From: a virus
Taxonomy: Duplodnaviria > Caudoviricetes
Strand: one strand, 5' to 3'
Length of the DNA stretch: 64,000 bases
Virus record (IMG/VR): IMGVR_UViG_2928716645_000002
Span: 1-64,000 of that record
Position numbers and translations under genes: made by a program. This document shows, piece after piece, positions 3,313 through 15,825 of this stretch. The notes beneath the pieces were generated by a model. It was given only the letters and a program-made list of their open reading frames with translations. It did not search any database and had not been told where the DNA came from. Every line of letters begins with the position of its first letter. Position 1 is the stretch's first letter.

Positions 3313-3603
3313 ATGTCGAACCCGCAGCAGCTAATCACCATGGATGAGCTCGAGGCCGGCAACATCGAACAGATGTGGCTGGAGGCAGTCGTCACGAAAC
3401 TGGACCTCAAGGGGAAGCCCGGCTCGGAGATCACCCAGGAGCGCGTGAAGGACACCAACGTCACCACGCTCTGGCACAAGAACCAGCCGGTCGCGATCTC
3501 GGTCCGGCAGCGCAACGACTGGAATTGGACCGCACTGACGATGGTCGAGATCCCGCCGATGAAGACGGAATTGGCAGGAGCGGCCGGAATCGAACCGACA
3601 TAA
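3313..3603 (+). CDS. hypothetical protein
   Basis: ORF whose 3' end runs antisense into tRNA-Trp. Confidence 0.5.
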   Translation: MSNPQQLITMDELEAGNIEQMWLEAVVTKLDLKGKPGSEITQERVKDTNVTTLWHKNQPVAISVRQRNDWNWTALTMVEIPPMKTELAGAAGIEPT

Positions 3604-3645
3604 CCGGTGTTGGAAGCCGGTGTCTTACCACTAGACGACACTCCC
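3572..3645 (-). tRNA. tRNA-Trp(CCA)
   Basis: CCGGC TT-CCA-AC ACCGG; GGTTCGATTCC; CCA end. Confidence 0.85.
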
Positions 3646-3657
3646 ATGGAGACAAGC

Positions 3658-3918
3658 ATGACAAACACGAAAGAGAGATTGGAGCAGAAGATCGGAGCGA
3701 GACGTCGCCAAGCTGGCATCACCATGGAGTCACCCAATAGCTGGCAACGCTTCGCCGTCACCGCCGTCGAGGCCGCCGTGGAGGAAATCGACGCCCTTCG
3801 CGCCTCTCTCGAAGATATCCAACGCACGGCGACAGTCGGAACGCTCGGGCCCCTCGGATACGAGGACACGTTGAGGAAGATTCGCGATCTCGTCGCGCAA
3901 GCGCTGGCCGTAGCTTGA
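3658..3918 (+). CDS. hypothetical protein
   Basis: fills the spacer between two tRNAs; GGAG SD. Confidence 0.5.
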   Translation: MTNTKERLEQKIGARRRQAGITMESPNSWQRFAVTAVEAAVEEIDALRASLEDIQRTATVGTLGPLGYEDTLRKIRDLVAQALAVA

Positions 3919-3993
3919 TGGTCCTGACTGGGTGAATCGAACACCGCGTCTCCCGGTCCACGGCCGAGCGTCCTACCATTGAACGAAGTCAGG
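3919..3993 (-). tRNA. tRNA-His(GTG), C33, A73
   Basis: CTCGG CC-GTG-GA CCGGG; acceptor CCTGACT/AGTCAGG-ACCA. Confidence 0.7.
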
Positions 3994-3998
3994 ATATG

Positions 3999-4071
3999 TG
4001 GTCGCAGGTAGCGGCTTCGAACCGCCCTATCCCGACTTATGAGATCGAGACCCTACCCGAGAGGCCCTGCG
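3999..4071 (-). tRNA. tRNA-Met/Ile(CAT) with short D-loop
   Basis: TCGAT CT-CAT-AA GTCGG; T-arm; ACCA. Confidence 0.65.
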
Positions 4072-4281
4072 ATGACTGAACTGACGGCCGCTGAGATGCG
4101 CGATCGATGCGCCAAATGGCACGACGACATGGAAGTGCGCTTTCGCCAAAAAGTGCAGGAGGTGTTGGCAATCCCAGGCCATGAGGAATCGTGCCCGGGG
4201 TTGCTTGAAGCGAATGATCAGATGGCCGATTTGCACAAGAGCTACGCGGTCGCGATGCGCGCGCTGTCGACGACACGGTGA
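4072..4281 (+). CDS. hypothetical protein
   Basis: fills inter-tRNA spacer. Confidence 0.45.
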   Translation: MTELTAAEMRDRCAKWHDDMEVRFRQKVQEVLAIPGHEESCPGLLEANDQMADLHKSYAVAMRALSTTR

Positions 4282-4358
4282 TGGGAGCCGCGACAGGCCT
4301 CGAACCTGCAGCCTACGGTTTTGGAAGCAGGCGCTCGTCCGCCTGAGCTTCACTCCCG
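4282..4358 (-). pseudogene. degenerate tRNA (CCA anticodon-like)
   Basis: D-arm and T-arm intact; acceptor and anticodon stems mispaired. Confidence 0.6.
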
Positions 4359-4365
4359 AGATCGA

Positions 4366-4442
4366 TGGCAGCGCCAGTCGGAATCCAACCGATCACCTCC
4401 GGGTCCACAACCCAGCGCTCTACCCCTTGAATTATGGCAGCT
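4366..4442 (-). tRNA. tRNA-His(GTG)-like, possibly degenerate
   Basis: CTGGG TT-GTG-GA CCCGG; T-loop TTGGATT; bulged acceptor. Confidence 0.55.
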
Positions 4443-4521
4443 CATCAGGAAGAAGGGCTAGACATCAAAGCTTTTGGTTGTACGTTCTGCGATTTTAAAC
4501 CGGGCTAGTCGGGGATTTACG

Positions 4522-4983
4522 ATGGATCAGTTTCTACGAGTATTTGGTGAAGTCTTGCAATCGAAGCCGGAATTCGTTCTTGCGGCGATAGCGACGCTCA
4601 CGATCCCTGTCGCGTTGCTTGCGGCCGCATTGAACTCTCGCCGGAGGTCAAGCACGGAACGAAAACAACTCGTCGACGAACTGTTGGCCAATCCCGCGGT
4701 GCAGGACAGGCTGCGAGATCCACAACTCAACATATCGGAATTCGTTGCTCAGATGCTGAGGAGCGCCGAAGAAGGCGAGGCATCTCCACGGCACGGTTGG
4801 GGAAGCATGTTGGCCAAGGTAAACCAAGACATCACCTGGGATGTTTCTGGTATCATCGGGCTAATCGTGACGATTGTGCTTATGATCATGGTGGTTTCGC
4901 GAAGCTATGCGGATATGCCGAAAGAGATCATAGCCGGCTGGACGACAATCTTGGGCTTCTACTTCGGCAAGGCAACGAAGTAG
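4522..4983 (+). CDS. membrane protein (about 3 TM)
   Basis: hydrophobic segments; C-terminal ILGFYFG. Confidence 0.65.
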   Translation: MDQFLRVFGEVLQSKPEFVLAAIATLTIPVALLAAALNSRRRSSTERKQLVDELLANPAVQDRLRDPQLNISEFVAQMLRSAEEGEASPRHGWGSMLAKVNQDITWDVSGIIGLIVTIVLMIMVVSRSYADMPKEIIAGWTTILGFYFGKATK

Positions 4984-5034
4984 TGCAGCCGCCCTTATGA
5001 GAAGCAGCCCCTACCCTACCGAGGGCCGGCGGCG
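4984..5034 (-). pseudogene. 5' fragment of a tRNA-Met(CAT)-like gene
   Basis: GCTGCTT CT-CAT-AA GGGCGGC anticodon arm; no T-arm or CCA. Confidence 0.5.
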
Positions 5035-5041
5035 TTGATGA

Positions 5042-5118
5042 TGGCAGGCGCGACAGGACTCGAACCTGTGGATGTCGGAATCAAAATCCGATGCCTTGAC
5101 CAACTTGGCTACGCGCCC
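5042..5118 (-). tRNA. tRNA-Gln(TTG)
   Basis: TCGGA TT-TTG-AT TCCGA. Confidence 0.9.
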
Positions 5119-5123
5119 GTGAA

Positions 5124-5198
5124 TGGCGCTCCCTACGGGAGTCGAACCCGTTTCCTCACCTTGAAAGGGTGATATCCTGACCGGTAGACGAAGGGAGC
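5124..5198 (-). tRNA. tRNA-Glu(TTC)
   Basis: TCACC CT-TTC-AA GGTGA. Confidence 0.9.
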
Positions 5199-5202
5199 AA
5201 TA

Positions 5203-5589
5203 ATGTTTGGAAGCGAAATCGAGACCGTTACCGGCGAGATGCTGATCGAAGCCAATGAGGCGACGGTTGAACAGCGCGGGAAGATGAACGCAATCGAGGC
5301 GGTCGTGGCGAGCTTGCACAGCAGGTACCCATCGAACCAGATTGTCGCTGCCACCTTTCGGCTCCAAGCGCTCGCCTCTTTGATGAGCAAAGACGACCTG
5401 AAGGGGTTGCAGCTTCGGTTGCATGGAAAAGACCACGCGCTTATCAACGAGGCGGCCTTCCATGCCGCTGCCAAGTGTAGGCTCGTGATGCCGCCTGAGG
5501 ACGCGACCTCTCGAGACGCGCTCGCGTTCGACAAGGACGAGTTTATTCGACTGGCGATGCAGTATGCTGAGCCGGATGGCTCCGCCTGA
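5203..5589 (+). CDS. hypothetical protein
   Basis: 128 aa ORF filling the spacer. Confidence 0.55.
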   Translation: MFGSEIETVTGEMLIEANEATVEQRGKMNAIEAVVASLHSRYPSNQIVAATFRLQALASLMSKDDLKGLQLRLHGKDHALINEAAFHAAAKCRLVMPPEDATSRDALAFDKDEFIRLAMQYAEPDGSA

Positions 5590-5590
5590 A

Positions 5591-5664
5591 TGGCGCGGGC
5601 TGCCGGACTCGAACCGACTTAGCCTGGGTGGAAACCAGGTGATCATCCCATGACCCAAGCCCGC
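5591..5664 (-). tRNA. tRNA-Gly(TCC)
   Basis: CCTGG TT-TCC-AC CCAGG. Confidence 0.8.
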
Positions 5665-5678
5665 GTAAGGAGTACGAA

Positions 5679-5894
5679 ATGGACGAGACCGCCCAACTCA
5701 TGTCGCTGTTAGAAGCGCAGGCGAAGTCGCTCCGAGACGGCCACCTGACGATCCTGCGCTTCACCGCAAACTGGCGCGTCGGCTTCGGAACGCCGAGCGA
5801 GCGCGATGATATCGCCAAGGCAGCCGACGGGCCAACATTTGCGGCCGCCGCGCGCAAGGCCCTCGCTAATCCAACAGAGCACTGCCTCTATTAG
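5679..5894 (+). CDS. hypothetical protein
   Basis: AAGGAG SD; fills spacer. Confidence 0.6.
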   Translation: MDETAQLMSLLEAQAKSLRDGHLTILRFTANWRVGFGTPSERDDIAKAADGPTFAAAARKALANPTEHCLY

Positions 5895-5895
5895 G

Positions 5896-5982
5896 TGGCG
5901 GAGAGGACAGGGATCGAACCTGCGCGTCCCGAAGGACTCGGCGCCTTAGCAAAGCGCTGCCTTACCGCTCGGCCACCTCTCC
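5896..5982 (-). tRNA. tRNA-Ser(GCT)
   Basis: GCGCT TT-GCT-AA GGCGC; long V-arm; G73. Confidence 0.9.
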
Positions 5983-6139
5983 AAAATTGTCCCGGGAATC
6001 CCCGGATTGACCGCCCGCCCTGCCCCGCGCTAATTGCGCGCGCGCCCCGAGGGGGGGTCTCGAGGGGGGGGTCTGTCGCGATCGCTCAGGACGCAACCCG
6101 CCCGCTCTTGGCCGCACCAAGGGCGGGCATTTTCGTGGA

Positions 6140-6216
6140 TGGCGATCGCCGCCGGACTCGAACCGGCAACCTCCGCGGTAGGAATGCGGTGCTCTGTCCA
6201 GTTGAGCCAGGCGACC
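6140..6216 (-). tRNA. tRNA-Arg(CCT)
   Basis: CCGCA TT-CCT-AC CGCGG. Confidence 0.85.
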
Positions 6217-6244
6217 ACTGATTTGTCAAAACGCGGAGTTCGAC

Positions 6245-6793
6245 TTGGTGGAAATCAGCTACAACATCAGCGTGCGTGAGCTCCGCGCCTATTGGGAGAA
6301 GGTGCACAATCTCGCCGACGGCGAAAGGATCGGAGTGTATCCGCGGGAATGCATGCCTTCCTGGACGGGGCTATGCGATGAACTGCCTTGGGAAACGTAC
6401 ACACTCGATGGCGGATACTTCTCGGCCAAGCATCACGGATTTCGAGGCGTCTACCGACTGTTTGCCTTGGAGAACGCGGGAGATTTGAAATCGGCGCCGA
6501 CATTCCGCCGGCTTGGCGGGGACGACCCGACGGGTACACTCTACATCGGCGAGGCCGGCGATCTAGCGAAGCGCCTTAACCAGGCGCGTAGATCGGCGCG
6601 GAGCCATCGTCGTGAGGACTCCCACGGTGCCATTAGTGCGATGCGGCAAATTCCGAAGCTGAACTTCCCCATCGAGAAGATCGGGGTCGCTCTGATGTAT
6701 ACGGACAGGTTGACGCGCATGATCGAGCGCGACCTCCTCTATTCGTACATCAACACATTCGGCGACAGTCCACCGTTGAATTACAAGATTTGA
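6245..6793 (+). CDS. GIY-YIG superfamily nuclease-like protein
   Basis: GVYRLF...LYIGEAGDLAKRL...IERDLL...PPLN. Confidence 0.65.
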   Translation: MVEISYNISVRELRAYWEKVHNLADGERIGVYPRECMPSWTGLCDELPWETYTLDGGYFSAKHHGFRGVYRLFALENAGDLKSAPTFRRLGGDDPTGTLYIGEAGDLAKRLNQARRSARSHRREDSHGAISAMRQIPKLNFPIEKIGVALMYTDRLTRMIERDLLYSYINTFGDSPPLNYKI

Positions 6794-6824
6794 GCCACGA
6801 TCAACTTGGACCGACTGCGAAAAA

Positions 6825-6900
6825 TGGCGCGCTCGGCAGGACTCGAACCCGCATGCGGCGGAGTAGAAATCCGCTGGCCGTCCAGTTGGCCCACGAGCGC
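6825..6900 (-). tRNA. tRNA-Arg(TCT)
   Basis: GCGGA TT-TCT-AC TCCGC. Confidence 0.85.
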
Positions 6901-6948
6901 TTGCAAAAGATCTGAAAAATAATCCTCGGTTTTGGCGTTTTTGTTCCA

Positions 6949-7023
6949 TGGAGGTGCGGGCCGGAATCGAACCGGCTCGTGGCGGTTTTGCAGACCGCAG
7001 CGTTCCCATTTCGCCACCGCACC
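6949..7023 (-). tRNA. tRNA-Cys(GCA)
   Basis: GCGGT CT-GCA-AA ACCGC; U73. Confidence 0.9.
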
Positions 7024-7024
7024 A

Positions 7025-7100
7025 TGGCAGCCTCTCGCGGGCTCGAACCGCGGACCACTCGGCTCAGAACCGAGCGCTCTACCAACTGAGCTAAGAGGCA
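7025..7100 (-). tRNA. tRNA-Gln(CTG)
   Basis: CTCGG TT-CTG-AG CCGAG. Confidence 0.85.
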
Positions 7101-7137
7101 TCAGAAGGGCGAGGCGCGTGCGCCCCGCCCTGTTCAA

Positions 7138-8445
7138 TCAGTCCGCCTGCTCGAGCTGGTGGATGAACCGAAGCACCCCCTCCGAGAAGCCGTCGATTTG
7201 CGTCCAGCGGCCGTAACCGACGCCGTTCAGGTTGGAAGCGACGTTGATCATATAGGCGTGACGCGCGACCGGATCTGGCACGCGATCCGAGCTCTGCTCG
7301 TCGGTGATGACGATCAGCCGGTCGTGCTGGATCCGGTTAATATGGCTTACCGCCGCGCCGAGCGCCGTTCCGCCGTGCGGCTGAGACCGTACGATTGCGT
7401 CGACACCGGCCATGCCGCGCCGCGGTGGAACCTCGACGACTTGGTTGGAGAACGTGAAGAGACGCAGATCGGCGTTCACGACGGCGCCGAGCGCGGCCGC
7501 GGCATCGATCCTCTTCATGTCCGACTTGCCCGACATCGCCCAATCCATGGATCCGGAAACGTCGATCAGGACGACCGTCTTCCCGGCGAGCTTCGGCATC
7601 TCACCGATAGCCGCCAACAAGGCCTGATCGAGATGCGGCTCGAAGCGCGGAGCGGCCCGCGCCGCAGCCACGTAACGGAACGGGAAGACGCGTCCGGCAC
7701 CGCGCCGCGCCACGATCGCATCCCGCACCAACGCCTCGTCGACGCCGGCCTGCGCCATGTTACGCAGGTTGCGCAGCAAGGCCAGGTAGCCGAGCTTGTT
7801 CTCGCGGAGCAGGCGCTCGAAGGCCTCCTTCTTGTCAGCGCCGCCGGAGAGCGCGACCTCCCAGGTATCCGGCGTCATCAAGGTGCGGTCCCGGACGCGC
7901 TTGAACAACGCCGATTGCTCGTCATTCGCCGGTTTCGGACGAACCAGGCGCAGGACGTCGCGGAGCTTGATGGCACCGTCCCGGTCGTACTTGGCCAGGC
8001 GGTACTCGTCGAACTTCTGGAACGCCCGAGCCAGGCCGTTGCGCATCTGCGCCGGCACCATCTTGCGGCCTTTGCGCCACAGGATGGCGAGGAGTTCAGC
8101 CATCTCGTCCGCACGCTGAATGACTCGCTCGACGGTCTCGGCGACCAGTGGATTGCCGGCGCCGGTCTTCGACAGCACCTCAAGCAGGAGCAGCGGGACG
8201 TGACGCAGGTTGTGCACCTCCCTGGCCTCGATCGCGATCGCGGCCAGGATCTCAGGCTTCACCTCCGCCGCGGTCTCGACGATTCGATCGGAGATCGCCT
8301 TGCCGTCCTCATAGAACTCGCTCTCCCAAAGCAGGCAGGACATAACGGTCCGGCGGAGCTGCTGCTCGGCAGAGAGATGGCGCGCGGCCGGTCCGCCCTC
8401 GTGGGTGAAAACCGGCGCCGACTTGTGTGGGGTGTTGAGACGCAT
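7138..8445 (-). CDS. rsr: Ro60/TROVE-domain RNA-binding protein (TROVE + vWA)
   Basis: THEGGPA, FDEYRLAKY, LRDVLRLVRPKP, TWEVALS, ALLRNLRN; vWA MIDAS DVSGSM and VITDEQ; AAGGAGG SD. Confidence 0.92.
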   Translation of the reverse strand: MRLNTPHKSAPVFTHEGGPAARHLSAEQQLRRTVMSCLLWESEFYEDGKAISDRIVETAAEVKPEILAAIAIEAREVHNLRHVPLLLLEVLSKTGAGNPLVAETVERVIQRADEMAELLAILWRKGRKMVPAQMRNGLARAFQKFDEYRLAKYDRDGAIKLRDVLRLVRPKPANDEQSALFKRVRDRTLMTPDTWEVALSGGADKKEAFERLLRENKLGYLALLRNLRNMAQAGVDEALVRDAIVARRGAGRVFPFRYVAAARAAPRFEPHLDQALLAAIGEMPKLAGKTVVLIDVSGSMDWAMSGKSDMKRIDAAAALGAVVNADLRLFTFSNQVVEVPPRRGMAGVDAIVRSQPHGGTALGAAVSHINRIQHDRLIVITDEQSSDRVPDPVARHAYMINVASNLNGVGYGRWTQIDGFSEGVLRFIHQLEQAD

Positions 8446-8467
8446 GTCGTCCTCCTTCGATTTGGAA

Positions 8468-8577
8468 GTCGCCATGACGGGATTTGGCAAGCGGCGAGCG
8501 CGGGATATGGGCCGAAGCCCGCTCTTTCATGGCAAGAAGTATCCGCGATCTATCAGCGCAAGCCCCGTCATGGCGAC
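8468..8577 (-). ncRNA. Y RNA-like gene 1 (no tRNA-like module)
   Basis: 14-bp terminal stem GTCGCCATGACGGG/CCCGTCATGGCGAC; GCTG...CTTGC motif shared with the neighbouring RNAs. Confidence 0.65.
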
Positions 8578-8584
8578 GGTTGGA

Positions 8585-8718
8585 CGGCATTGTGAGAGCG
8601 AGCAAGTGTCGGATGCGGTTTGCCAGACCAACTGGGCGTCGACCCCGTAAAGGCGGGGTCGATTGGAATCGAACCAATGAAGGAACCGCATACCTGCAGC
8701 GTCGCACTCACGATGCCG
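8585..8718 (-). ncRNA. YrlA-like Y RNA 2
   Basis: long terminal stem enclosing T-arm ATTGGTTCGATTCCAAT, closed acceptor-like hairpin and D-like AGTTGGT. Confidence 0.8.
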
Positions 8719-8725
8719 AAAATAG

Positions 8726-8884
8726 GCGCCCCATTGCAGGACCGGGCAAGTATCGAAACCGGACACGGTAAGCGCTCTACCACTGAGCTATCGGGATTTC
8801 TCCCGAGTGGGATTCGAACCCACGACCTCTCGCTCCCAAAGCGAAGTAACCGATTTCTGCAGCGCCGATCCCGCAATGTGGCGC
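8726..8884 (-). ncRNA. YrlA-like Y RNA 3
   Basis: long terminal stem enclosing permuted tRNA domain: T-arm GTGGGTTCGAATCCCAC, hairpin TCGGGAGAAATCCCGA, D-arm GCTCAGTGGTAGAGC. Confidence 0.88.
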
Positions 8885-8951
8885 GGGTAGATTGATGGCA
8901 CACCGAAGATTCGGCATGCCGGTTTCTTCGACAGTTATCCACCGTCGATAT

Positions 8952-9027
8952 TGGTCAAGGCGGTCGGACTCGAACCGACGGCTTCCGGTACCCAAAACCG
9001 GCGGGTTAGCCGCTACCCCACGCCCTG
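8952..9027 (-). tRNA. tRNA-Pro(TGG)
   Basis: CCGGT TT-TGG-GT ACCGG. Confidence 0.85.
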
Positions 9028-9032
9028 ATGAT

Positions 9033-9111
9033 TGGTGCCCACGGCAAGAGTCGAACTTGCATGCTCCAGTTACGGTACTTGTGCTTCGTAGGCACAGCCG
9101 GTTACGTGGGC
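9033..9111 (-). tRNA. atypical tRNA-Arg(ACG) lacking a normal D-arm
   Basis: perfect acceptor, anticodon and T stems; 8 nt between acceptor and anticodon arm; 19-nt variable region. Confidence 0.65.
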
Positions 9112-9115
9112 GAAA

Positions 9116-9190
9116 TGGTACTGCCAGCGGGACTCGAACCCGCGTCAACCGGCTGAGAACCGGTCATCCTAACCGCTAGACGATGGCAGC
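9116..9190 (-). tRNA. tRNA-Glu(CTC)
   Basis: ACCGG TT-CTC-AG CCGGT. Confidence 0.88.
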
Positions 9191-9230
9191 AGATTTGACG
9201 GCCGGACAGATTTGCCCGACAATCGGCGAC

Positions 9231-9662
9231 ATGAAAACCTTCGCCTATGCCGCTGTTTTCGAGCCCGGCGATCGCCGCGGCATCGTGGTGACGTTCCCGG
9301 ATGTCCCGGAGGCAATCACGCAGGGCAAAGACGACGACGATGCGCGGGATCAAGCCGAGGAGGCGTTGGGCCTTGCCCTGCTCTCCTATCTCGAGCGCGG
9401 ATTGGACCTGCCAAAGCCGGCGGCGCGCGGCCGCGAGTTCGTCACTATCCACGTCGCGCCCGACATCGCCATCAAGCTGGCGGTGCTGCGAGCGTTCGCC
9501 GCTGCGGGCATATCGAAATCTGAGCTCGGCCGACGCATTGGCAAGGACGAGAAGGAGGTCCGGCGCATGCTGGATCCGTCCCATCCCACGAAGCTCGCGC
9601 CAATGGCTGAGGCCCTCCGCGCGCTCGGCAAGCGCCTGGTCGTTGGCGTCGACGACGCCTGA
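9231..9662 (+). CDS. hicB: HicB family antitoxin (HicB + HTH), orphan
   Basis: VTFPDVPEAITQG...AEEAL; C-terminal ISKSELGRRIG HTH. Confidence 0.85.
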   Translation: MKTFAYAAVFEPGDRRGIVVTFPDVPEAITQGKDDDDARDQAEEALGLALLSYLERGLDLPKPAARGREFVTIHVAPDIAIKLAVLRAFAAAGISKSELGRRIGKDEKEVRRMLDPSHPTKLAPMAEALRALGKRLVVGVDDA

Positions 9663-9665
9663 AAA

Positions 9666-9739
9666 TGGCTCCCCGACCAGGACTCGAACCTGGATGGACC
9701 GGTTAACAGCCGGGCCGCTTACCATTAGCGGATCGGGAA
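9666..9739 (-). tRNA. tRNA-Asn(GTT)
   Basis: CCCGG CT-GTT-AA CCGGT. Confidence 0.85.
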
Positions 9740-9878
9740 AATGAACCTAGTCGCACTTCCTGGGAGGGCGGCTTGACCAGGTTGTGGAAAGCGGGAATAG
9801 CCACCGCGAGGCCTTTCGGCCGGCGCGGCGGTCGCTAGCTTGCATTGAGCGATTCGTCGCGCACAACCCCGAGCGGCA

Positions 9879-10817
9879 ATGACAGATTTACCTTCACCGC
9901 GGCCGTACCGAGTTTTGAGCCTGGATGGCGGCGGAGCCAAAGGGTTCTACACGCTTGGAGCTCTCAAGGAGATCGAGGCGGTCGCCGGCCGGCCTCTGTG
10001 TGAGACGTTCAATCTCATCTACGGCACGAGCACGGGGGCTATCATCGCGGCTCTTCTAGGTTTGGGGAGCCGGGTCGAGGAGATCGAATCTCTTTATCGG
10101 CTGCGAGTCGTCGAAGTAATGGGTGAGATCCTACCTCGTAGGAAAACGGCCGCATTGGAAGCACTTGCACAAGACGTCTTCGGGGAACGCCGCTTTGACG
10201 CTTTCAAGACCGACATGGGCATTGTCGGCACTCGCTGGGACGACGATCGGCCAATAATCTTCAAGACCAACGCGGGGCAAGCGTTCACTGGCGTCGGTTC
10301 GTTTGAGCCGGGCTTCGGCTGCACTATAGCCGACGCAGTCGTTGGGTCGTGCTCGGCCTATCCGTTCTTTCTTAAGAAAATGGTGACGACTGGTCGTGGC
10401 GATCGGATCGAAGTCAGAGATGGCGGCTTCGTCGCGAACAATCCTACGCTCTATGCCGTCGCCGATGCCGTGGAATCGCTCGGGCATGACCGCGAAAACC
10501 TTCGGGTCGTCAGTCTCGGCGTGGGCGAATATCCCGCGCCGACACTTCCGGCCACCAGCGCACGGAAATGGATCAGCAAATGGCCGACGGTAAAATTCTC
10601 GCAGAAACTGTTGGAGATCAACACGCAGTCGATGGAGCAGCTAAGCCGTGTGTTGTTTGGCGGTGTGCCCCTTATCCGTATCAACGCGAAGTACACACAG
10701 CCCGAGATGGCAACAGACATGCTTGAGGCAAACATGGAAAAACTGGCCAAGCTTTGGAGTCGTGGACGAGACTCAGCGCGAGAGTACGACGGGGAACTTA
10801 AACGCTTTTTGATTTAG
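9879..10817 (+). CDS. patatin-like phospholipase (CBASS effector, CapE/CapV-like)
   Basis: LDGGGAKG, GTSTG and DGG motifs; directly upstream of the CD-NTase. Confidence 0.88.
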   Translation: MTDLPSPRPYRVLSLDGGGAKGFYTLGALKEIEAVAGRPLCETFNLIYGTSTGAIIAALLGLGSRVEEIESLYRLRVVEVMGEILPRRKTAALEALAQDVFGERRFDAFKTDMGIVGTRWDDDRPIIFKTNAGQAFTGVGSFEPGFGCTIADAVVGSCSAYPFFLKKMVTTGRGDRIEVRDGGFVANNPTLYAVADAVESLGHDRENLRVVSLGVGEYPAPTLPATSARKWISKWPTVKFSQKLLEINTQSMEQLSRVLFGGVPLIRINAKYTQPEMATDMLEANMEKLAKLWSRGRDSAREYDGELKRFLI

Positions 10818-10828
10818 GAGAATTGGAC

Positions 10829-11719
10829 GTGGCAATTTCGGAAGCACAACTCGAAACTTGGAACAAGCTAGGCCCTACAGCGCAGTTCACCTCCACCTAC
10901 GAAGCACTGCGAGACGTTCTGAATGATTCCAGCTCACCATACTGGCCAAAGAGCTTCGAGATATTTCTGCAGGGCTCCTACAAGAACTCTACCAACGTTT
11001 ATGGAGACAGTGATGTAGATGTGGTGATCCGCCTGGATTCGATCTTCTACACTGACCTTTATTTCCTCAGCGAGGAAGAGAAACAGCGTTACAATTCTCA
11101 ACGTACGGAGGGGAACTATAGCCTCGAGGAATTTAAAACATCGGTCATTTCTTGGCTCACCAAAAAGTATGGCAACGACGTCCAACCTGGCAACAAAGCA
11201 GTCTTCATCAAAGGCAACGGCACCAGCCGTCGAGACGCCGACGTTCTTATCTGCGCAAAGTTACGTCGCTACTATAGCTTCCCCGAGTTCGGGCAACCAC
11301 ACTACGTCGATGGAATTTGCTTTTTCTTACCCAGCGGCATCCGGATCGAGAACTTCCCCGAGAAGCACGCCGAGAACTGCACGACAAAGCACCAGGACAC
11401 GCGGCAATGGTTCAAGCCAACTGTTCGCATCTTCAAAAATCTTCGCAACACGATGATCAAAAATAAGATCATCGAAGACGGGCTGGCTCCGTCCTATTTT
11501 ATCGAGGGAATGCTGTATAACGTTCCCCCAACCAAGTTCGGTGGCAGCGAACAGATGAACTTCAAGGACGTATTGAATTGGCTGCTATCAGCAGATCGCG
11601 ACAAATTTGTTTGCGCGAACGAACAATTTAAACTTCTTGGCGGCGCGCATGTCACATGGCCTGCAGCAAACTGCACTCAGTTCTTGAATGCTGTGAAGTC
11701 CTATAATGACGCAGCTTAG
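10829..11719 (+). CDS. CD-NTase, CdnE-like cyclic nucleotide synthase
   Basis: LQGSYKNSTNVYGDSDVDV, DADV, IENFP..H, FKPTVRIFKN, PSYFIEGMLYNVP; AGGAG SD before GTG. Confidence 0.85.
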   Translation: MAISEAQLETWNKLGPTAQFTSTYEALRDVLNDSSSPYWPKSFEIFLQGSYKNSTNVYGDSDVDVVIRLDSIFYTDLYFLSEEEKQRYNSQRTEGNYSLEEFKTSVISWLTKKYGNDVQPGNKAVFIKGNGTSRRDADVLICAKLRRYYSFPEFGQPHYVDGICFFLPSGIRIENFPEKHAENCTTKHQDTRQWFKPTVRIFKNLRNTMIKNKIIEDGLAPSYFIEGMLYNVPPTKFGGSEQMNFKDVLNWLLSADRDKFVCANEQFKLLGGAHVTWPAANCTQFLNAVKSYNDAA

Positions 11720-11812
11720 TACCTATCGGCGGGGTGCGGATTAGGCACCTGCCGGCAGGTCGAGCGCAAAAGTGCAGATCAACCGCAAATCGGCAGGTGG
11801 TGCTGGTGATGA

Positions 11813-11887
11813 TGGTGGACCCGGAGGGAATTGAACCCCCTACCCGCCGCGTGCAAAACGGCCGCTCTCCCGGTGAGCTACGGGCCC
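11813..11887 (-). tRNA. tRNA-Ala(TGC)
   Basis: GCCGT TT-TGC-AC GCGGC; G3:U70. Confidence 0.9.
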
Positions 11888-12393
11888 TTGAAGTTTATTC
11901 GAGATTTGTCCTTGCCGGCGGCGCGCCAGTTCGCCATCCACTGTGCGTTGAACGCGCGCTTTGCCGTCACGCACACTTCGCACCGACACCCAAGGCGGTA
12001 CTTTCCAACGCCATGGGGAGCGGATCGACCGGTAGAACCTGCGATCTGATTGCATGACCGATGCGAAAACGAGATGTTGTTCAAATCGAAGAACGTCGCC
12101 TTCGGATCGTTCGATCTCTGCCACGAGCTCTTGTGCTCGATGGACAGTTCTTCGACGCTGTCGATTGGCTTACTGCACCTGAAACAAACGTTCAGGTCGA
12201 GCTTGCACACCAAATCGAACATGATCAGCTTGCGGAGTTGGTGACAAGCTGTCCCGAACTTCATCCCGAGCAGTTCGTCCTTGGTATCGTTTGCTCGACG
12301 CCACGCCCCGCGGCGCCGTGTGCGCAGCTCTTCGGCAGGATCAAGATCAATGGGGACTTCCCCGCCGTCGGCGGGTAAACTGGAATCGGTCAT
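11878..12393 (-). CDS. HNH-like endonuclease
   Basis: CFRC...SIEH...NNISFSHRSCN; start uncertain. Confidence 0.65.
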   Translation of the reverse strand: MTDSSLPADGGEVPIDLDPAEELRTRRRGAWRRANDTKDELLGMKFGTACHQLRKLIMFDLVCKLDLNVCFRCSKPIDSVEELSIEHKSSWQRSNDPKATFFDLNNISFSHRSCNQIAGSTGRSAPHGVGKYRLGCRCEVCVTAKRAFNAQWMANWRAAGKDKSRINFKGP

Positions 12394-12522
12394 TTGAGCC
12401 GCTACCACGGTTCGAGTGATCAGGCTCGGCTCGGTGTTACCAGCACCGGGTCGAGCCGCCACAGAATCTATCTGAACCGATAGAGCTTGCAAAGCATGCC
12501 CGCGGACCCAGCGCGCGTGCCC

Positions 12523-12610
12523 CGATAGGTTTACAGTTTCGGCGATCGCGTTGACACTTTCGCCGATACGCTTGTCAGTTTGGCCGATCTGATTGACAGC
12601 TTCGGCGAAT
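12523..12610. repeat. about four degenerate 21-bp tandem repeats
   Basis: CGAT..TTGACAGTTTCGG-like units at 12523, 12543, 12564, 12585. Confidence 0.55.
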
Positions 12611-12611
12611 T

Positions 12612-12686
12612 TGGTGCCCGGAAATGGAATCGAACCACTGACGCGCACGCCTTCAACGTGCCGCTCTACCGCTGAGCTACCCGGGC
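12612..12686 (-). tRNA. tRNA-Phe(GAA)
   Basis: GCACG TT-GAA-GG CGTGC. Confidence 0.88.
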
Positions 12687-12721
12687 AAATTGCGAGTATG
12701 CGCAATTTCGCAAACTGAAGA

Positions 12722-12795
12722 TGGCGCGGGCACCGGGAGTCGAACCCGGGCTGCGAGAGTGGCACTCTCGCCGACTACCGTAATCTTTTGCCCGC
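12722..12795 (-). tRNA. tRNA-Gly(GCC)
   Basis: CGAGA GT-GCC-AC TCTCG; atypical D-arm. Confidence 0.75.
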
Positions 12796-12802
12796 ATTGA
12801 AT

Positions 12803-12887
12803 TGGTGGGTAACCGCGGAATCGAACCGCGCACGCGCTAAGGCGCAGGTTTTACAGACCCGCTCAGTCACCAGACTTGGCGTTACCC
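12803..12887 (-). tRNA. tRNA-Tyr(GTA)
   Basis: CGGGT CT-GTA-AA ACCTG; V-arm. Confidence 0.8.
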
Positions 12888-12905
12888 GAGATGTCGCCGC
12901 GCTAG

Positions 12906-13163
12906 TTAGGCCGCGGTTTCCTTCGTCTTGGAGGTCTTGCGAAGAATTTCGTGAGCGAAGGAAATGTCAGTTGCTTTGTCGACGATCGGGCGGAAACGGC
13001 GGACGAACCAGCGATGATTTTCGTGGTTCGGATCGGCGCAACAATCGACGCGCATAAACTCAGGCTCGACCGCAAGGCATGTATAGACCTGCTTGCTACG
13101 CAAGCACGTCCCGCCGCCTCGGGCATCGATGCATTCGACAGGCTGCCCGACCCCGAACATCAT
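12906..13163 (-). CDS. hypothetical phage protein
   Basis: MMFGVGQPVECID...RRFRPIV; GAGGG SD. Confidence 0.55.
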   Translation of the reverse strand: MMFGVGQPVECIDARGGGTCLRSKQVYTCLAVEPEFMRVDCCADPNHENHRWFVRRFRPIVDKATDISFAHEILRKTSKTKETAA

Positions 13164-13180
13164 TCCCTCGTCCCCCGAAC

Positions 13181-13258
13181 TGGTTGCGTGGCCCGGGAGT
13201 CGAACCCGGTATTTCCGGCTTATGAGGCCAGCGTGGTGATCCATTCCACTCGCCCGCC
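13181..13258 (-). tRNA. tRNA-Met(CAT), initiator-like
   Basis: CTGGC CT-CAT-AA GCCGG; unpaired 1:72; ...CGCAACCA end. Confidence 0.7.
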
Positions 13259-13261
13259 AAA

Positions 13262-13352
13262 TGGTGCCGAGGCTCTCGCCTCAGCGGCGCCGACGTACGT
13301 CCGGCCTGGCGCTATTCGTTAAGTCCGACGACTAAAGATCGTTCGTGGCCGA
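13262..13352 (-). ncRNA. unknown structured RNA ending in hairpin + ACCA
   Basis: GCTGAGGC-GAGA-GCCTCGGC-ACCA; occupies a slot between tRNAs; 5' end uncertain. Confidence 0.4.
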
Positions 13353-13366
13353 ACTGAGTCTTGAAT

Positions 13367-13452
13367 TGGCGGAGAGCAGAGGAGTCGAACCCCCATCCCG
13401 AAGGAGCAACGGTTTTCAAGACCGCTGGCAGACCATCCCGCCCGTACTCTCC
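13367..13452 (-). tRNA. tRNA-Ser(TGA)
   Basis: GCGGT CT-TGA-AA ACCGT; V-arm. Confidence 0.85.
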
Positions 13453-13455
13453 AAT

Positions 13456-13533
13456 TGGCTTCCCCTGCTGGACTCGAACCAGCGGCCTCGGCCTTCGGAC
13501 GGCCGCGTTCTCACTCCACTGAGCTAAGGGGAA
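13456..13533 (-). tRNA. tRNA-Arg(CCG)
   Basis: CGGCC GT-CCG-AA GGCCG. Confidence 0.8.
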
Positions 13534-13569
13534 AAAAGGACCGGCGGCAGACGAAGCCGCCGCCGGCAA

Positions 13570-14106
13570 TCACTTCTCGAGCTCGACGTCCCAGTACAGA
13601 TAGTCCGCCCAGGACTCGTGCAGGAAGTTCGGCGGGAAGAGCCGCTGGGCCGCCAGCAGGTCAAACTGCGTCGGCTCGAACGGCGCCCGCAACGGCTTCA
13701 CGCGAAAGCGGTCCTTGCGCATGTTGCACGGACTGCACGCCGCGACGATGTTCGTCCAGGACGTCTGGCCGCCGTCGGCACGCGGGATGACGTGGTCGAA
13801 CGTCAACTCCCCCCGGAGGTGCTGCTCGCCGCAATACTGGCAGCGGAAACGATCGCGGAGGAAGACGTTGAACCGCGTGAAGGCGACCCGAGCCGGCGGC
13901 CGCACGTATTCGCGCAACGCGATCACCGACGGCAGCCGCATCTCTGTCGACGGGCTCCTGACGACCTGGTCGTATTCCGCGACAACTGCGTGAGATCCCT
14001 TAACCACCGCCTTGACCGCATCCTCCCAATTAAAGAGCGACAACGGAAAATAGCTGAGCGGTTGGAAGTCCGCGTTGAGCACCAACGCGGGGCAGTTCTG
14101 AAACAT
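13570..14106 (-). CDS. HNH endonuclease (McrA/HNH_5-like)
   Basis: LVLNADFQPL, VFLRDRFRCQYCG, TFDHVIP, NIVAACSPCN; AAGGAGG SD. Confidence 0.92.
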   Translation of the reverse strand: MFQNCPALVLNADFQPLSYFPLSLFNWEDAVKAVVKGSHAVVAEYDQVVRSPSTEMRLPSVIALREYVRPPARVAFTRFNVFLRDRFRCQYCGEQHLRGELTFDHVIPRADGGQTSWTNIVAACSPCNMRKDRFRVKPLRAPFEPTQFDLLAAQRLFPPNFLHESWADYLYWDVELEK

Positions 14107-14125
14107 CGTCGCCTCCTTGCGTTGG

Positions 14126-14201
14126 TGGTGCCCCTGGGGTGGATCGAACACCCTCATCTGACCGTTATGAGCGGCCGGCCTTCCCATCTGGCTCCAAGGG
14201 C
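14126..14201 (-). tRNA. tRNA-Ile2/Met(CAT)
   Basis: GGCCG CT-CAT-AA CGGTC. Confidence 0.75.
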
Positions 14202-14206
14202 GGAAT

Positions 14207-14284
14207 TGGTCGGTGTGGCAGGATTCGAACCTGCGGCCCCTTCCGTCCGAGGGAAGTACGCTGACCTGGCTGCGCTACACACCG
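14207..14284 (-). tRNA. tRNA-Pro(CGG)
   Basis: CTTCC CT-CGG-AC GGAAG; C1:G72, A73. Confidence 0.88.
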
Positions 14285-14285
14285 A

Positions 14286-14359
14286 TGGCGCCCCTGACGA
14301 GGATCGAACTCGCCTTCCCGCATCGACAGTGCGGTCCCTTCCCAGATGGGTACAGGGGC
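14286..14359 (-). tRNA. tRNA-Asp(GTC)
   Basis: CCGCA CT-GTC-GA TGCGG; G73. Confidence 0.82.
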
Positions 14360-14362
14360 AAT

Positions 14363-14446
14363 TGGTGCGCTTGGCCGGGGTCGAACCGGCATGGTTTCCC
14401 GGCGCCCCCTCAAGACGCTGCGTCTACCGAATTCCGCCACAAGCGC
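14363..14446 (-). tRNA. tRNA-Leu(GAG)
   Basis: GCGTC TT-GAG-GG GGCGC. Confidence 0.85.
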
Positions 14447-14460
14447 GTAAAGTTGTCCGC

Positions 14461-14619
14461 ATGCTCGAAAACGTCCCTTGCAACCATTGCGAAGAAGAGT
14501 TCTCTCCGGAAGAACTGGTCGCCCTCCCGCCGCCGGCCGGCGATGGCGAGTTGATCTGCAAGCGTTGTATCGAAATCATCCTGAGACGAGCGATCGCGAA
14601 ACTGCCTCGGGAAAACTGA
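14461..14619 (+). CDS. small zinc-finger protein
   Basis: CNHC...CKRC; fills spacer. Confidence 0.45.
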   Translation: MLENVPCNHCEEEFSPEELVALPPPAGDGELICKRCIEIILRRAIAKLPREN

Positions 14620-14624
14620 TCATT

Positions 14625-14713
14625 TGGTGAACGAGGCAGGATTCGAACCTGCGCGGGGCTCAAGGCCCGTGCGGTTAAGAGCCGCGTGCCGTCGACCGCT
14701 TGGCTACTCGTCC
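14625..14713 (-). tRNA. tRNA-Lys(CTT) with long variable arm
   Basis: CGCGG CT-CTT-AA CCGCA followed by GGGC-CTTGA-GCCC hairpin. Confidence 0.8.
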
Positions 14714-14715
14714 AT

Positions 14716-14806
14716 TGGTGAACCGGGAGGGACTCAAACCCCCGATGTGGCCGTGAGGCCAGCCGGATTAAAAGTCCGGGCCGTTCGTCGTTACGGTAAC
14801 CGGTCC
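14716..14806 (-). tRNA. tRNA-Lys(TTT) with long variable arm
   Basis: CCGGA CT-TTT-AA TCCGG followed by TGGCC-TCAC-GGCCA hairpin. Confidence 0.75.
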
Positions 14807-14949
14807 ATCTTCTCGATGGTTGCGGCGGCCAGCCGCTCCGGTTTCGTGTGGCGCGCCGTGACGGCGTTGCTCTTCGCTTTGGCGCGCGCGAGCGCGGCTT
14901 GGCTCTCGGCCGACAGCACATGCACGCCGGCGGGCAGCTTATCCGTCAT
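14791..14949 (-). CDS. small hypothetical protein
   Basis: GGGAG SD; MTDKLPAG... Confidence 0.45.
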   Translation of the reverse strand: MTDKLPAGVHVLSAESQAALARAKAKSNAVTARHTKPERLAAATIEKMDRLP

Positions 14950-14973
14950 GTCGAGCTCCCTTTGCTTTCGAAT

Positions 14974-15048
14974 TGGTGCACGCTGCTGGTATCGAACCAA
15001 CTGCCACTCGCTTATCAGGCGAGGCCCTCACCGGTCGGACTAACGTGC
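14974..15048 (-). tRNA. tRNA-Ile(GAT)
   Basis: CTCGC CT-GAT-AA GCGAG. Confidence 0.8.
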
Positions 15049-15079
15049 CTGGTTGAACGTGTGCAAAACTTGCACGGGC

Positions 15080-15154
15080 TGGTGCGTCCGGATGGAATTG
15101 AACCACCGGCATCGACCATGTCGGGATCGCGCTCTACCACTGAGCTACGGACGC
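15080..15154 (-). tRNA. tRNA-Val(GAC), C33
   Basis: CGATC CC-GAC-AT GGTCG. Confidence 0.82.
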
Positions 15155-15158
15155 AAAT

Positions 15159-15293
15159 TGGATCGACGCGGACCGGTCTTCACCCGTCGCCGGGCGGCCC
15201 TCTGGGTGGCGCCCAGAAACCGATGTATGGGCCTGCTCTCGCGCACTGAGCCGGCGGCGTCGCGATCGCTGCCGGCGGCACGCGCCGCGTCGA
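15159..15293 (-). ncRNA. unknown 135-nt tRNA-like ncRNA (9-bp terminal stem + TCCA)
   Basis: TCGACGCGG...CCGCGTCGA-T-CCA; 2-4 nt from flanking tRNAs. Confidence 0.65.
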
Positions 15294-15295
15294 AA

Positions 15296-15370
15296 TGGTG
15301 CGCGCCGACGGGATCGAACCGCCGACACCCTGTGTGTAGGACAGGCGCTCTACCGCTGAGCTAGGCGCGC
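15296..15370 (-). tRNA. tRNA-Val(TAC), C33
   Basis: CCTGT CC-TAC-AC ACAGG. Confidence 0.85.
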
Positions 15371-15377
15371 GATATCG

Positions 15378-15457
15378 TGGTGCCCCAGGCCGGACTCGAA
15401 CCGGCAACAGAAACTGCTTTTGAGGCAGCGGCGTCTACCACGTTCCGCCACCGGGGC
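15378..15457 (-). tRNA. tRNA-Leu(CAA), short variable region
   Basis: GCTGC CT-CAA-AA GCAGT. Confidence 0.82.
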
Positions 15458-15481
15458 AATGAAATCACAATGGAAGTGCAA

Positions 15482-15565
15482 TGGTGCGGACGGAGGGGAT
15501 CGAACCCACACTCCGAAGAACCGGTTCCTGAGACCGGCGCGTCTACCAAGTTCCGCCACGTCCGC
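15482..15565 (-). tRNA. tRNA-Leu(CAG)
   Basis: CCGGT CT-CAG-GA ACCGG. Confidence 0.88.
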
Positions 15566-15570
15566 GTTGA

Positions 15571-15646
15571 TGGTGCTGTCACCAGGGCTCGAACCTGGCG
15601 CCTCGACCCTACCAAGATCGCGCTCTACCCGATGAGCTATGACAGC
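15571..15646 (-). tRNA. tRNA-Thr(GGT)
   Basis: CGATC TT-GGT-AG GGTCG. Confidence 0.85.
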
Positions 15647-15674
15647 AAGCCGCAAGGAAAGCTTGCAGGTTGAA

Positions 15675-15749
15675 TGGTGCCCGCAGGAGGACTTGAGTCT
15701 CCGCGCGTCCGCCTACAATGCGGCTGCTCTCCATCTGAGCTATGCGGGC
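15675..15749 (-). tRNA. tRNA-Thr(TGT), aberrant T-arm
   Basis: GCCGC AT-TGT-AG GCGGA; T-loop region ACTCAAGT. Confidence 0.6.
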
Positions 15750-15750
15750 G

Positions 15751-15825
15751 TGGTGCCGGCGACAGGACTTGAACCCACAACCGTCTCCTTACGAAGGAGC
15801 TGCGCTACCGTTGCGCCACGCCGGC
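15751..15825 (-). tRNA. tRNA-Thr(CGT)
   Basis: GCTCC TT-CGT-AA GGAGA. Confidence 0.82.

Follow-up and report, generated by a model that had tools for sequence, protein, structure and literature searches.

By the textbook rule, a long variable arm in bacteria is restricted to the transfer RNAs (tRNAs) for leucine, serine and tyrosine (and selenocysteine), a restriction that is basic to tRNA classification, identity rules and tRNA-finding software. The viral DNA analysed here (hereafter the window: 64,000 nt, positions 1 to 64,000 of IMG/VR record IMGVR_UViG_2928716645_000002, Caudoviricetes) carries at positions 14625-14806 two neighbouring tRNA-Lys genes of class II shape, that is, with a long and paired variable (V) arm. 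Two questions are raised by this locus: which amino acid do such tRNAs accept, and what does the additional arm do? A first-pass annotation of the window had left a choice between nuclease-resistant lysine tRNAs and tRNAs mischarged by leucyl- or tyrosyl-tRNA synthetase (LeuRS, TyrRS), which would alter the decoding of Lys codons. As judged by sequence-level criteria, these class II-shaped tRNAs belong to tRNA-Lys, and the genes of the window have numerous relatives with the same design.

Anatomy of the tRNA-Lys pair

The two genes and their diagnostic parts were delineated as follows.

14625-14713, minus strand: tRNA-Lys(CUU), class II shape, 89 nt (ARAGORN; Rfam, 51.1 bits; manual parse)
14716-14806, minus strand: tRNA-Lys(UUU), class II shape, 91 nt (ARAGORN; Rfam, 32.9 bits; minimum free energy fold)
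14653-14669, minus strand: V arm of tRNA-Lys(CUU), 17 nt, consisting of C, a 4-bp stem GGGC/GCCC with the loop CTTGA, and the 3' tail CGC (parse, folding)
14744-14762, minus strand: V arm of tRNA-Lys(UUU), 19 nt, consisting of C, a 5-bp stem TGGCC/GGCCA with the loop TCAC, and the 3' tail CATC (parse, folding)
14677-14679, minus strand: CUU anticodon (position-by-position parse)
14770-14772, minus strand: UUU anticodon (position-by-position parse)

Two bases separate the genes. Both were covered by the Rfam model RF00005 over its full length (model positions 1-71) and above its gathering score of 29 bits, with an insertion of 14-15 nt in the V region of each. Parsing of the CUU gene gave a 7-bp acceptor stem (GGACGAG/CTCGTTC), the anticodon loop CTCTTAA, a 5-bp T arm with the loop TTCGAAT, the discriminator base A73 and an encoded CCA end; its D arm, with a 3-bp stem (GCC/GGC) and a Tyr/Leu-like 11-nt loop bearing G18G19, is of the class II type, with position 13-22 unpaired. 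The UUU gene was parsed into the acceptor GGACCGG/CCGGTTC, the anticodon loop CTTTTAA, A73 and an encoded CCA, while its D arm, shifted by one nucleotide, starts with a 3-nt connector (TTA) followed by a 4-bp stem. The full five-arm cloverleaf is the minimum free energy fold of this gene, and its V hairpin folded better than 200/200 shuffled versions (z -4.6). In both genes the V region exceeds 10 nt and forms a stem-loop (17 nt with 4 bp and 19 nt with 5 bp, respectively), which is class II architecture, and the acceptor and T stems have the geometry 7/5, not the 8/4 or 9/3 of the allo-tRNA and tRNA-Sec types. The lengths of 89 and 91 nt, the paired V arms and A73 reported in the first-pass annotation were all confirmed by ARAGORN, Rfam and the parse, and the Tyr/Leu-like D arm that it had ascribed to the CUU gene was recovered as well.

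The elbow of the UUU gene is unusual in that G19:C56 is replaced by A19:U56: the D loop reads AACGACGA (G18 A19) and the T loop TTTGAGT (U56), where relatives have AGCGGCCGA together with TTCGAAT. Among the 2,205 tRNAs of all loci, a D loop with GA and without GG was found in 33 of the 47 tRNAs having U56 and in 14/2105 of those having C56. Given this covariation, the low Rfam score of the UUU gene is attributable to a compensated variant and not to decay. The A19:U56 elbow pair was also seen to recur among phage-array tRNAs of many isotypes.

The long-armed tRNA-Lys family

When 50,697 cultured phage records were searched by blastn with the 182-nt pair as query, no match was returned. As the family is too divergent for blastn, pattern scans combined with ARAGORN were used. 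Viral contigs were scanned for a Lys(CUU) loop followed by a T loop at class II spacing, and the matches were verified by ARAGORN. Across 55 loci this yielded 75 tRNA-Lys genes of at least 80 nt (long form), with many UUU genes lying beyond the selection made by the pattern. In a phage scan unbiased for length, with patterns set to exclude tRNA-Leu(UAA) read in another register, the long form accounted for 8 of 126 tRNA-Lys genes (6%); long forms were present, in the same scan, in 6/32 tRNA genes for Asn, 5/31 for Ile, 3/47 for Met and 2/42 for Thr, with none among those for Ala, Arg, Asp, Glu, His and Pro. The limitation of long V arms to Leu, Ser, Tyr and Sec, on which the first-pass annotation had relied, is correct as a textbook rule but is widely broken in phage and mobile arrays.

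Among prokaryotes (one genome per species; among the matches listed), long tRNA-Lys genes are located almost exclusively inside dense tRNA arrays. They occur in several alphaproteobacterial arrays and in a conserved array of Acidobacteriaceae, where Lys(ctt) of 75 nt lies next to Lys(ttt) of 88 nt. Isolates possessing them include Thalassospira xianhensis and Butyrivibrio sp. XPD2002, and a tRNA-Lys(UUU) of 90 nt, annotated as tRNA-Lys without comment, is present in CcrBL10, a cultured phage of Caulobacter. In the chromosomal array of a Methyloligellaceae genome (G003, array L186/L354), a class I-shaped Lys(CUU) with U73 adjoins a long Lys(UUU), also with U73. By these counts, long-armed tRNA-Lys genes form a family that is large, conserved and carried by tRNA arrays of phages and mobile elements. 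No description of a class II-shaped tRNA-Lys was found in the literature searched, most subscription journals being outside the search.

The array of Acidobacteriaceae/Terracidiphilus (e.g. L182, L235, L162) comprises about 31 tRNAs in a fixed gene order and was seen in more than 20 species-level genomes. The Acidobacteriaceae arrays also include tRNA-His of 78-80 nt, long tRNA-Ile(tat) of 79-82 nt, an occasional tRNA with the anticodon CTA, to which ARAGORN assigns Pyl (L123), and genes called as SeC or Stop.

The design of arm and body was followed in 144 distinct long tRNA-Lys sequences, parsed from viral contigs and bacterial arrays (the prokaryotic part again among the matches listed); counts are given out of 144 unless another total is stated. 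Exclusion of L152 and L199, which are archaeal, intron-bearing class I tRNAs, and of L128 and L181, which contain masked runs of N, left 140. The anticodon loop is CTTTTAA or CTCTTAA in 143 sequences. Of the discriminator bases, 100 are A, 41 are U and 3 are G, as compared with A in 155 of 160 short tRNA-Lys from the same loci. The V arm has a stem of 3-4 bp with 0-1 unpaired nt on its 5' side, and where the V stem folds (134 sequences) it is capped by a GNRA loop in 89 (GAAA in 64). In 127 sequences the arm ends in a 3' tail of 3-4 nt; the commonest tail is CATC (29), followed by CACC (16), AAT (15) and AAC (10); across isotypes, the tail measures 3-4 nt in Lys, 3 in Tyr, 1-2 in Leu and 1 in Ser.

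Folding of the V regions of the family was superior to that of shuffled sequences (mean z -3.5; 76% of them beat 95% of their shuffles), and 32 different outer V stems were counted among 122, so that the V pairing has been kept through changes on both strands. Compensatory double changes were found at 20/20 pairs of the four standard stems in the 144-sequence alignment. The V stem was not recovered in the MAFFT/RNAalifold consensus, where arms of different lengths misalign, and V regions were therefore tested separately. The core is class II-like: 63 sequences have a D stem of 3 bp and 57 have G9, whereas among the 160 short tRNA-Lys the D stem is of 4 bp in 130 and position 9 is A in 117.

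The V length of Lys genes is bimodal (4-5 nt in 153 genes, 12-21 nt in 140 and intermediate values in 7), whereas in the Leu genes of the same loci it spreads continuously over 5-20 nt, 74 of the 178 genes having less than 10 nt. Judging by these distributions, the arrays do not retain arms by inertia, as arms are lost in Leu while a defined arm is kept in Lys, and phage arrays remodel variable arms in both directions. It should be noted that LeuRS of the E. coli type does not need a long V arm (PMC9976931).

Tyr was the most frequent class (31) when the bodies of the 140 long tRNA-Lys were sorted, after removal of the anticodon loop, the V arm and position 73, by a position weight matrix (PWM) classifier, followed by Lys (27), Cys and Arg (17 each), His (14), short-V Leu (12), Asp (7) and Ser (4), with none classed as long-V Leu, an assignment that is ambiguous as to isotype. 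On these data the bodies represent a group of their own, closest in geometry to Tyr and clearly not Ser- or Leu-like. A long arm was also detected in tRNA-Asn(GUU), with 21 distinct sequences mostly having a 4-bp arm and a 3-4 nt tail (e.g. L196:1482, 88 nt; L040:7658; L163:6149; L007:312). Unlike the Lys/Asn type is the arm seen in tRNA-Ile(UAU), with a V region of 21-25 nt and A73 (L164, 96 nt; L180, 93 nt; L213, 95 nt; L169, 92 nt).

Probable lysine identity, the phage and its host

According to published identity rules, class I lysyl-tRNA synthetase (LysRS; B. burgdorferi rules) reads U35 and U36, with G2·U71 essential and A73 marginal, and class II LysRS (E. coli rules) reads U35/U36 with U34, and A73, with G2·U71 as an antideterminant (PMC9976931). 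All the class I elements, U35, U36 and G2·U71, are present in both genes of the window. Of the class II elements, both genes have the anticodon and A73, whereas their G2·U71 reportedly impairs the LysRS of E. coli; other family members, with G2-C71, occur in genomes with class II LysRS. The only other tRNA of the window with G2·U71 is Arg(cct), and over all loci this pair was found in 26/304 Lys versus 52/1901 other tRNAs. Class I-shaped phage tRNA-Lys with the acceptor GGACCGG/CCGGTTC, G2·U71 and A73 were detected in L053, L346 and L349. With these elements in place, both tRNAs of the window are probably charged with lysine. Since LysRS reads U35, U36 and the top of the acceptor, the extra arm would be expected, under the published identity rules, to leave identity unchanged, and G2·U71 in both genes would favour charging by the class I LysRS of a Bradyrhizobium-type alphaproteobacterial host.

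The pair is part of a tRNA array carried by a temperate siphovirus, with the following features.

3572-15825, minus strand: co-oriented tRNA array, 33 tRNAs called by ARAGORN and 2 by Rfam only, all 20 amino acids
13570-14187, minus strand: HNH endonuclease open reading frame (ORF) within the array, between tRNA-Arg(ccg) and tRNA-Met (Pfam PF01844, E 4e-14), probably a homing endonuclease
15378-15457, minus strand: tRNA-Leu(CAA), 80 nt, with a 7-nt unpaired V region TTCTGTT and a Leu-type body (A15, U48, A73)
14363-14446 and 15482-15565, minus strand: the other tRNA-Leu genes, GAG and CAG, with a V region of 11 nt each and normal Leu bodies (A15, U48, A73)

The whole contig has 107,984 bp and 63% G+C, and its ARAGORN tRNAs are confined to 3572-15825; the tRNAs found by Rfam only have the anticodons CAU (13185-13257) and UGU (15678-15749). 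No class I-shaped (normal) tRNA-Lys was detected on the whole contig by ARAGORN and Rfam, and the long-armed pair provides the sole readers of AAA and AAG within an array otherwise complete for amino acids. The conspicuously short V region of Leu(CAA), also mentioned in the first-pass annotation, proved to be real. Inspection by eye revealed an ORF at 14453-14621 (plus strand, opposite to the Lys pair) encoding a zinc-ribbon-like peptide with CxxC...CxxC, and an ORF of about 53 codons at about 14790-14950 (minus strand), the end of which overlaps the first 16 nt of tRNA-Lys(UUU).

Terminase large subunit (TerL), portal, HK97-type major head protein, tape measure and J-like tail protein are encoded in the window and identify the phage as a siphovirus. 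TerL is at most 57% identical to that of cultured phages, 83-85% identical to TerL in Bradyrhizobium prophages (chromosomes of 8.5-8.9 Mb), and matched at 100% identity by a protein encoded on a contig of 9.4 Mb; these identities point to a Bradyrhizobium-like host. The gene order of the array is that of arrays in an alphaproteobacterial metagenome-assembled genome (MAG; L150) and in Rhizomicrobium (L197), which have 30 and 27 anticodons, respectively, in common with it, at a median tRNA identity of 73%. In both, an adjacent Lys(ttt)-Lys(ctt) pair is kept in place and is 74-78% identical to the genes of the window. The TerL of the window was not found in the five genomes with the most similar arrays, which, together with the shared gene order, indicates that the array moves between backbones.

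Class I LysRS is encoded by 78 of 81 sampled genomes from the order of G003, which we take, on the basis of GTDB taxonomy, to include Bradyrhizobium. The chromosomal tRNA-Lys(UUU) of G003 located outside the array has A73 and G2·U71. Caulobacter vibrioides matches the class I LysRS family and was not among the controls matching class II at E ≤ 1e-60. In the search for class I LysRS homologues, no named Bradyrhizobium appeared among the best 120 matches. Hosts of long tRNA-Lys that have class I LysRS comprise Thalassospira, Methyloligellaceae and three more genomes of alphaproteobacterial type; those with class II LysRS comprise Butyrivibrio, Acidobacteriaceae, Marinifilum, Gemmatimonadota, Verrucomicrobia and five others. 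Among 15 genomes, 5/5 with class I LysRS carry long tRNA-Lys with U73, and 7/7 genomes with A73 have class II LysRS (one-sided Fisher test, approx. 0.02, calculated by hand and confounded by relatedness). In so small and related a sample the pattern is suggestive only; it agrees with A73 being marginal for class I LysRS.

Codon usage and comparative data also point to lysine. At the 28 AAR codons of the window TerL, lysine occupies 71% of the positions across 119 homologues, being conserved like arginine, glutamate and leucine in their own columns; the 15 TerL columns with at least 95% lysine are all AAG or AAA, and no leucine, tyrosine or serine signal was observed. Long tRNA-Asn keep G73 in 20 of 21 sequences, which indicates that the arm travels with the cognate identity marks. 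Furthermore, stand-alone long Lys(UUU) genes of 85-87 nt were found on actinobacterial MAG contigs (L151, L156, L157, L174, L177 and L218; Actinomycetota, Frankiales, Mycobacteriales), and in five of these MAGs a genome-wide search for the tRNA(UUU) pattern with any V length matched nothing but the long form. The genes lie in conserved synteny between thiolase (upstream) and dehydrogenase, glyoxalase and Ada genes, with a variable segment downstream and with neither phage genes nor an array around them. LysRS in these MAGs is of class II. In an order-level sample, whose tally includes the unpublished genome G109 without any result depending on it, normal spacing was found in 24 genomes, no match in 36 and the long form in G014 alone. 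The actinobacterial copies may represent a cellular, non-phage use of the long-arm design.

The other option of the first-pass annotation, mischarging, would mean that TyrRS, LeuRS or seryl-tRNA synthetase (SerRS) recognises the class II body and that Lys codons are in part translated as Tyr, Leu or Ser, in deliberate mistranslation or recoding. A73, U35 and a long arm do occur in both genes, the D arm of the CUU gene is Tyr/Leu-like with G18G19, and in vitro leucylation is known for V-arm tRNAs of nematodes that bear Gly or Ile anticodons. However, A15-U48, required by E. coli LeuRS alongside A73 and G18G19 with A20a, is missing from both genes (G15-C48 in CUU; A15·C48 in UUU, which has G18A19 and so lacks G19), while the three Leu tRNAs of the same phage keep A15 and U48. 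For TyrRS, the critical A73 and U35 are present, as is the arm, but G34 and A36 are absent (rules for LeuRS and TyrRS from PMC9976931), and 41 of the 144 genes of the same design have U73, which neither TyrRS nor LeuRS would accept. SerRS would meet A73 in place of G73, G2·U71 in place of G2-C71, arms of 4-5 bp where 5-7 bp is usual for Ser, and tails of 3-4 nt instead of 1. The bodies class as Ser in 4/140 and as long Leu in 0/140; the pair is the only reader of Lys codons in a complete set; AAR codons stand at conserved lysines of TerL; and five MAGs have the long form as the sole tRNA(UUU) found. By the identity rules, the two are not Ser, Leu or Tyr tRNAs with an exchanged anticodon. Mischarging is thus very unlikely, and of the original choice it is lysine acceptance that is the better supported, with nuclease resistance a plausible addition. 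Marginally less probable again are non-translational decoys, unused by the ribosome, which would titrate a nuclease or another factor binding tRNA-Lys. Over-expressed viral tRNAs have been raised as possible competitive inhibitors in the AriB study, but a decoy would have no need of the acceptor, CCA, 7-nt loop with U33 and A37, compensated elbow and LysRS identity pair that are all kept, and the array would then be left with no Lys tRNA. As for decaying pseudogenes or artefacts of tRNA finders, the UUU gene, at 32.9 bits, without G18G19 and C56 and with a shifted D arm, might give that impression; its stems are nevertheless all intact, its departures are either compensated (A19:U56) or common to relatives (L240, L150 and L145 have the 3-nt connector too), and between homologous arrays the Lys genes evolve no faster than their neighbours, which makes this explanation scarcely credible.

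Possible function of the arm and known systems

Several defence nucleases have tRNA-Lys(UUU) as their preferred substrate. The nuclease AriB of PARIS cuts it at 40|41; Thr(UGU) is cut as well, and Asn(GUU) and Thr(CGU) to a lesser extent. AriB recognises U36-A-A-U-C|A41 and requires additional contacts away from the anticodon loop (PMC11464382; bioRxiv 10.1101/2025.02.04.636281). A bacterial Schlafen likewise prefers tRNA-Lys(UUU). In the long-armed tRNAs, the V arm emerges immediately 3' of position 43 and adjoins the strand cut by AriB, and there is overlap between the targets of AriB and the isotypes in which long variants occur (Lys, Asn, some Thr). The CUU gene of the window has C39. The UUU gene keeps U36-A-A-U-C, with C41, and any resistance would consequently come from elsewhere in the molecule. 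The AriB-type U39C40 was found in 10/20 long versus 10/34 short phage Lys(UUU) in an unselected set with few genes, other sets being biased by the pattern.

We propose, as the most attractive mechanism, that the arm, exiting the core beside the 3' strand of the anticodon stem, would block the docking of nucleases that bind the tRNA body, such as AriB or Schlafen-type enzymes, and that Lys decoding would continue while the tRNA-Lys of the host is destroyed. Taken by itself, the role of the arm as an anti-nuclease shield is plausible, though we would rate it somewhat below an even chance. We lean, with reserve, towards the combined reading, namely that the pair encodes functional, Lys-accepting tRNAs with class II bodies whose arm is directed against tRNA-Lys nucleases. 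Still more tentative is a wider version, in which the GNRA-capped arm would be a general anti-defence device on nuclease-targeted tRNAs (Lys, Asn, Thr and perhaps Ile-UAU), acting by shape and not by point mutation, leaving recognition by synthetase and ribosome undisturbed, present in many phage lineages and mobile arrays and adopted by some actinobacterial chromosomes.

Alternatively, the arm could be a tolerated relic of a Tyr-like class II body in which the anticodon was remoulded from GUA to GUU, UUU or CUU, giving an ordinary Lys tRNA whose arm has no defence role. Such an arm would be tolerated because recognition by LysRS and AsnRS depends on the anticodon and on position 73. The 3-4 nt 3' tail and the 3-4 bp stem are closest to those of Tyr; the core is class II-like, set apart by its 3-bp D stem and G9 from the A9 of short tRNA-Lys; and Tyr provides the nearest non-Lys neighbours of the window genes and the top PWM class (31/140). 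The stand-alone actinobacterial copies without phage context would also fit. On the other hand, Leu arms are readily lost in the very arrays in which Lys arms are bimodal in length and conserved in design, Tyr descent is not demonstrated by a classifier as ambiguous as this one (Lys 27, Cys 17, Arg 17), and long variants concentrate in Lys, Asn and Ile instead of appearing in every isotype one step from Tyr. The relic explanation is rather unlikely on this balance, although the Tyr-like geometry and the actinobacterial chromosomal copies keep it in play.

Several points also weigh against the combined reading that we favour. The 4-bp V hairpin of the CUU gene, taken alone, does not fold significantly better than shuffled sequences (z -1.3), although it still matches the design of the long-armed tRNA-Lys family. 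TyrRS, too, relies mainly on A73, U35 and an arm of Tyr-like geometry, and some tyrosylation of the A73 members is conceivable. The LysRS class of the host was deduced from its order and not from the host genome; G2·U71 is present in only 10 of the 144 long tRNA-Lys, and the family occurs with both LysRS classes. With regard to the shield, tRNA-Ile(UAU) has long variants yet is no reported AriB target, PrrC accepts anticodon stem-loops, so that an extra arm would not protect against it, and the actinobacterial chromosomal copies persist without obvious phage conflict.

The occurrence of a long-armed Lys (and Asn) family in phages, mobile arrays and a few chromosomes means that the long-arm rule is not general. 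The family lends itself, as an experiment of nature, to testing how LysRS of either class handles an extra arm, and in genome annotation its members should be called tRNA-Lys, not pseudogenes or tRNAs for Leu, Ser or Tyr. If the arm does protect, it would constitute a new counter-defence principle, a second, shape-based route to nuclease-proof tRNAs, and could be useful in the design of nuclease-proof or orthogonal tRNAs.

Compared with canonical bacterial and phage tRNA-Lys, which have a V loop of 4-5 nt, the tRNAs of the window are alike in their anticodon loops (CUUUUAA/CUCUUAA), A73, codons and presumed synthetase, and differ by a paired V arm of 17-19 nt and a class II-type core (the D arm of CUU, the connector of UUU). 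Bacterial tRNA-Tyr shares with the long tRNA-Lys A73, U35, a V stem of 3-5 bp with about 3 unpaired nt and the style of the D arm; it has UUCG loops, AUU tails and the anticodon GUA, whereas the long tRNA-Lys favour GNRA loops and CAYC tails and have CUU or UUU and, in 41/144, U73, with G2·U71 in the genes of the window. Nematode nev-tRNAs and bacterial allo-tRNAs likewise combine a long V arm with the anticodon of another amino acid, but with these it is the body that decides on charging (with Leu or Ser), and they mistranslate; allo-tRNAs have 8/4 or 9/3 geometry; the tRNAs of the window are 7/5, are devoid of Ser and Leu identity elements and keep those for Lys. The tRNA-Lys(UUU), Thr(UGU) and Asn(GUU) of phage T5, which resist AriB, are similarly phage-borne replacements for the tRNAs that defence nucleases attack most often, with overlapping isotypes (PMC11464382; bioRxiv 10.1101/2025.02.04.636281). 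The T5 tRNA-Lys has a class I body and escapes by point changes at 39 and 41, whereas the tRNAs described here differ by an added arm. Finally, bacterial and plasmid tRNA arrays, such as those of Mycobacterium, are also dense and mobile, with about 30 tRNAs for nearly all amino acids and with variant D, anticodon and V arms, and have been proposed as an anti-defence device (PMC12803027). No class II-shaped tRNA-Lys is described in that literature (PMC12803027), and the array of the window resides in a temperate siphovirus and shares its gene order with arrays of alphaproteobacterial MAGs.

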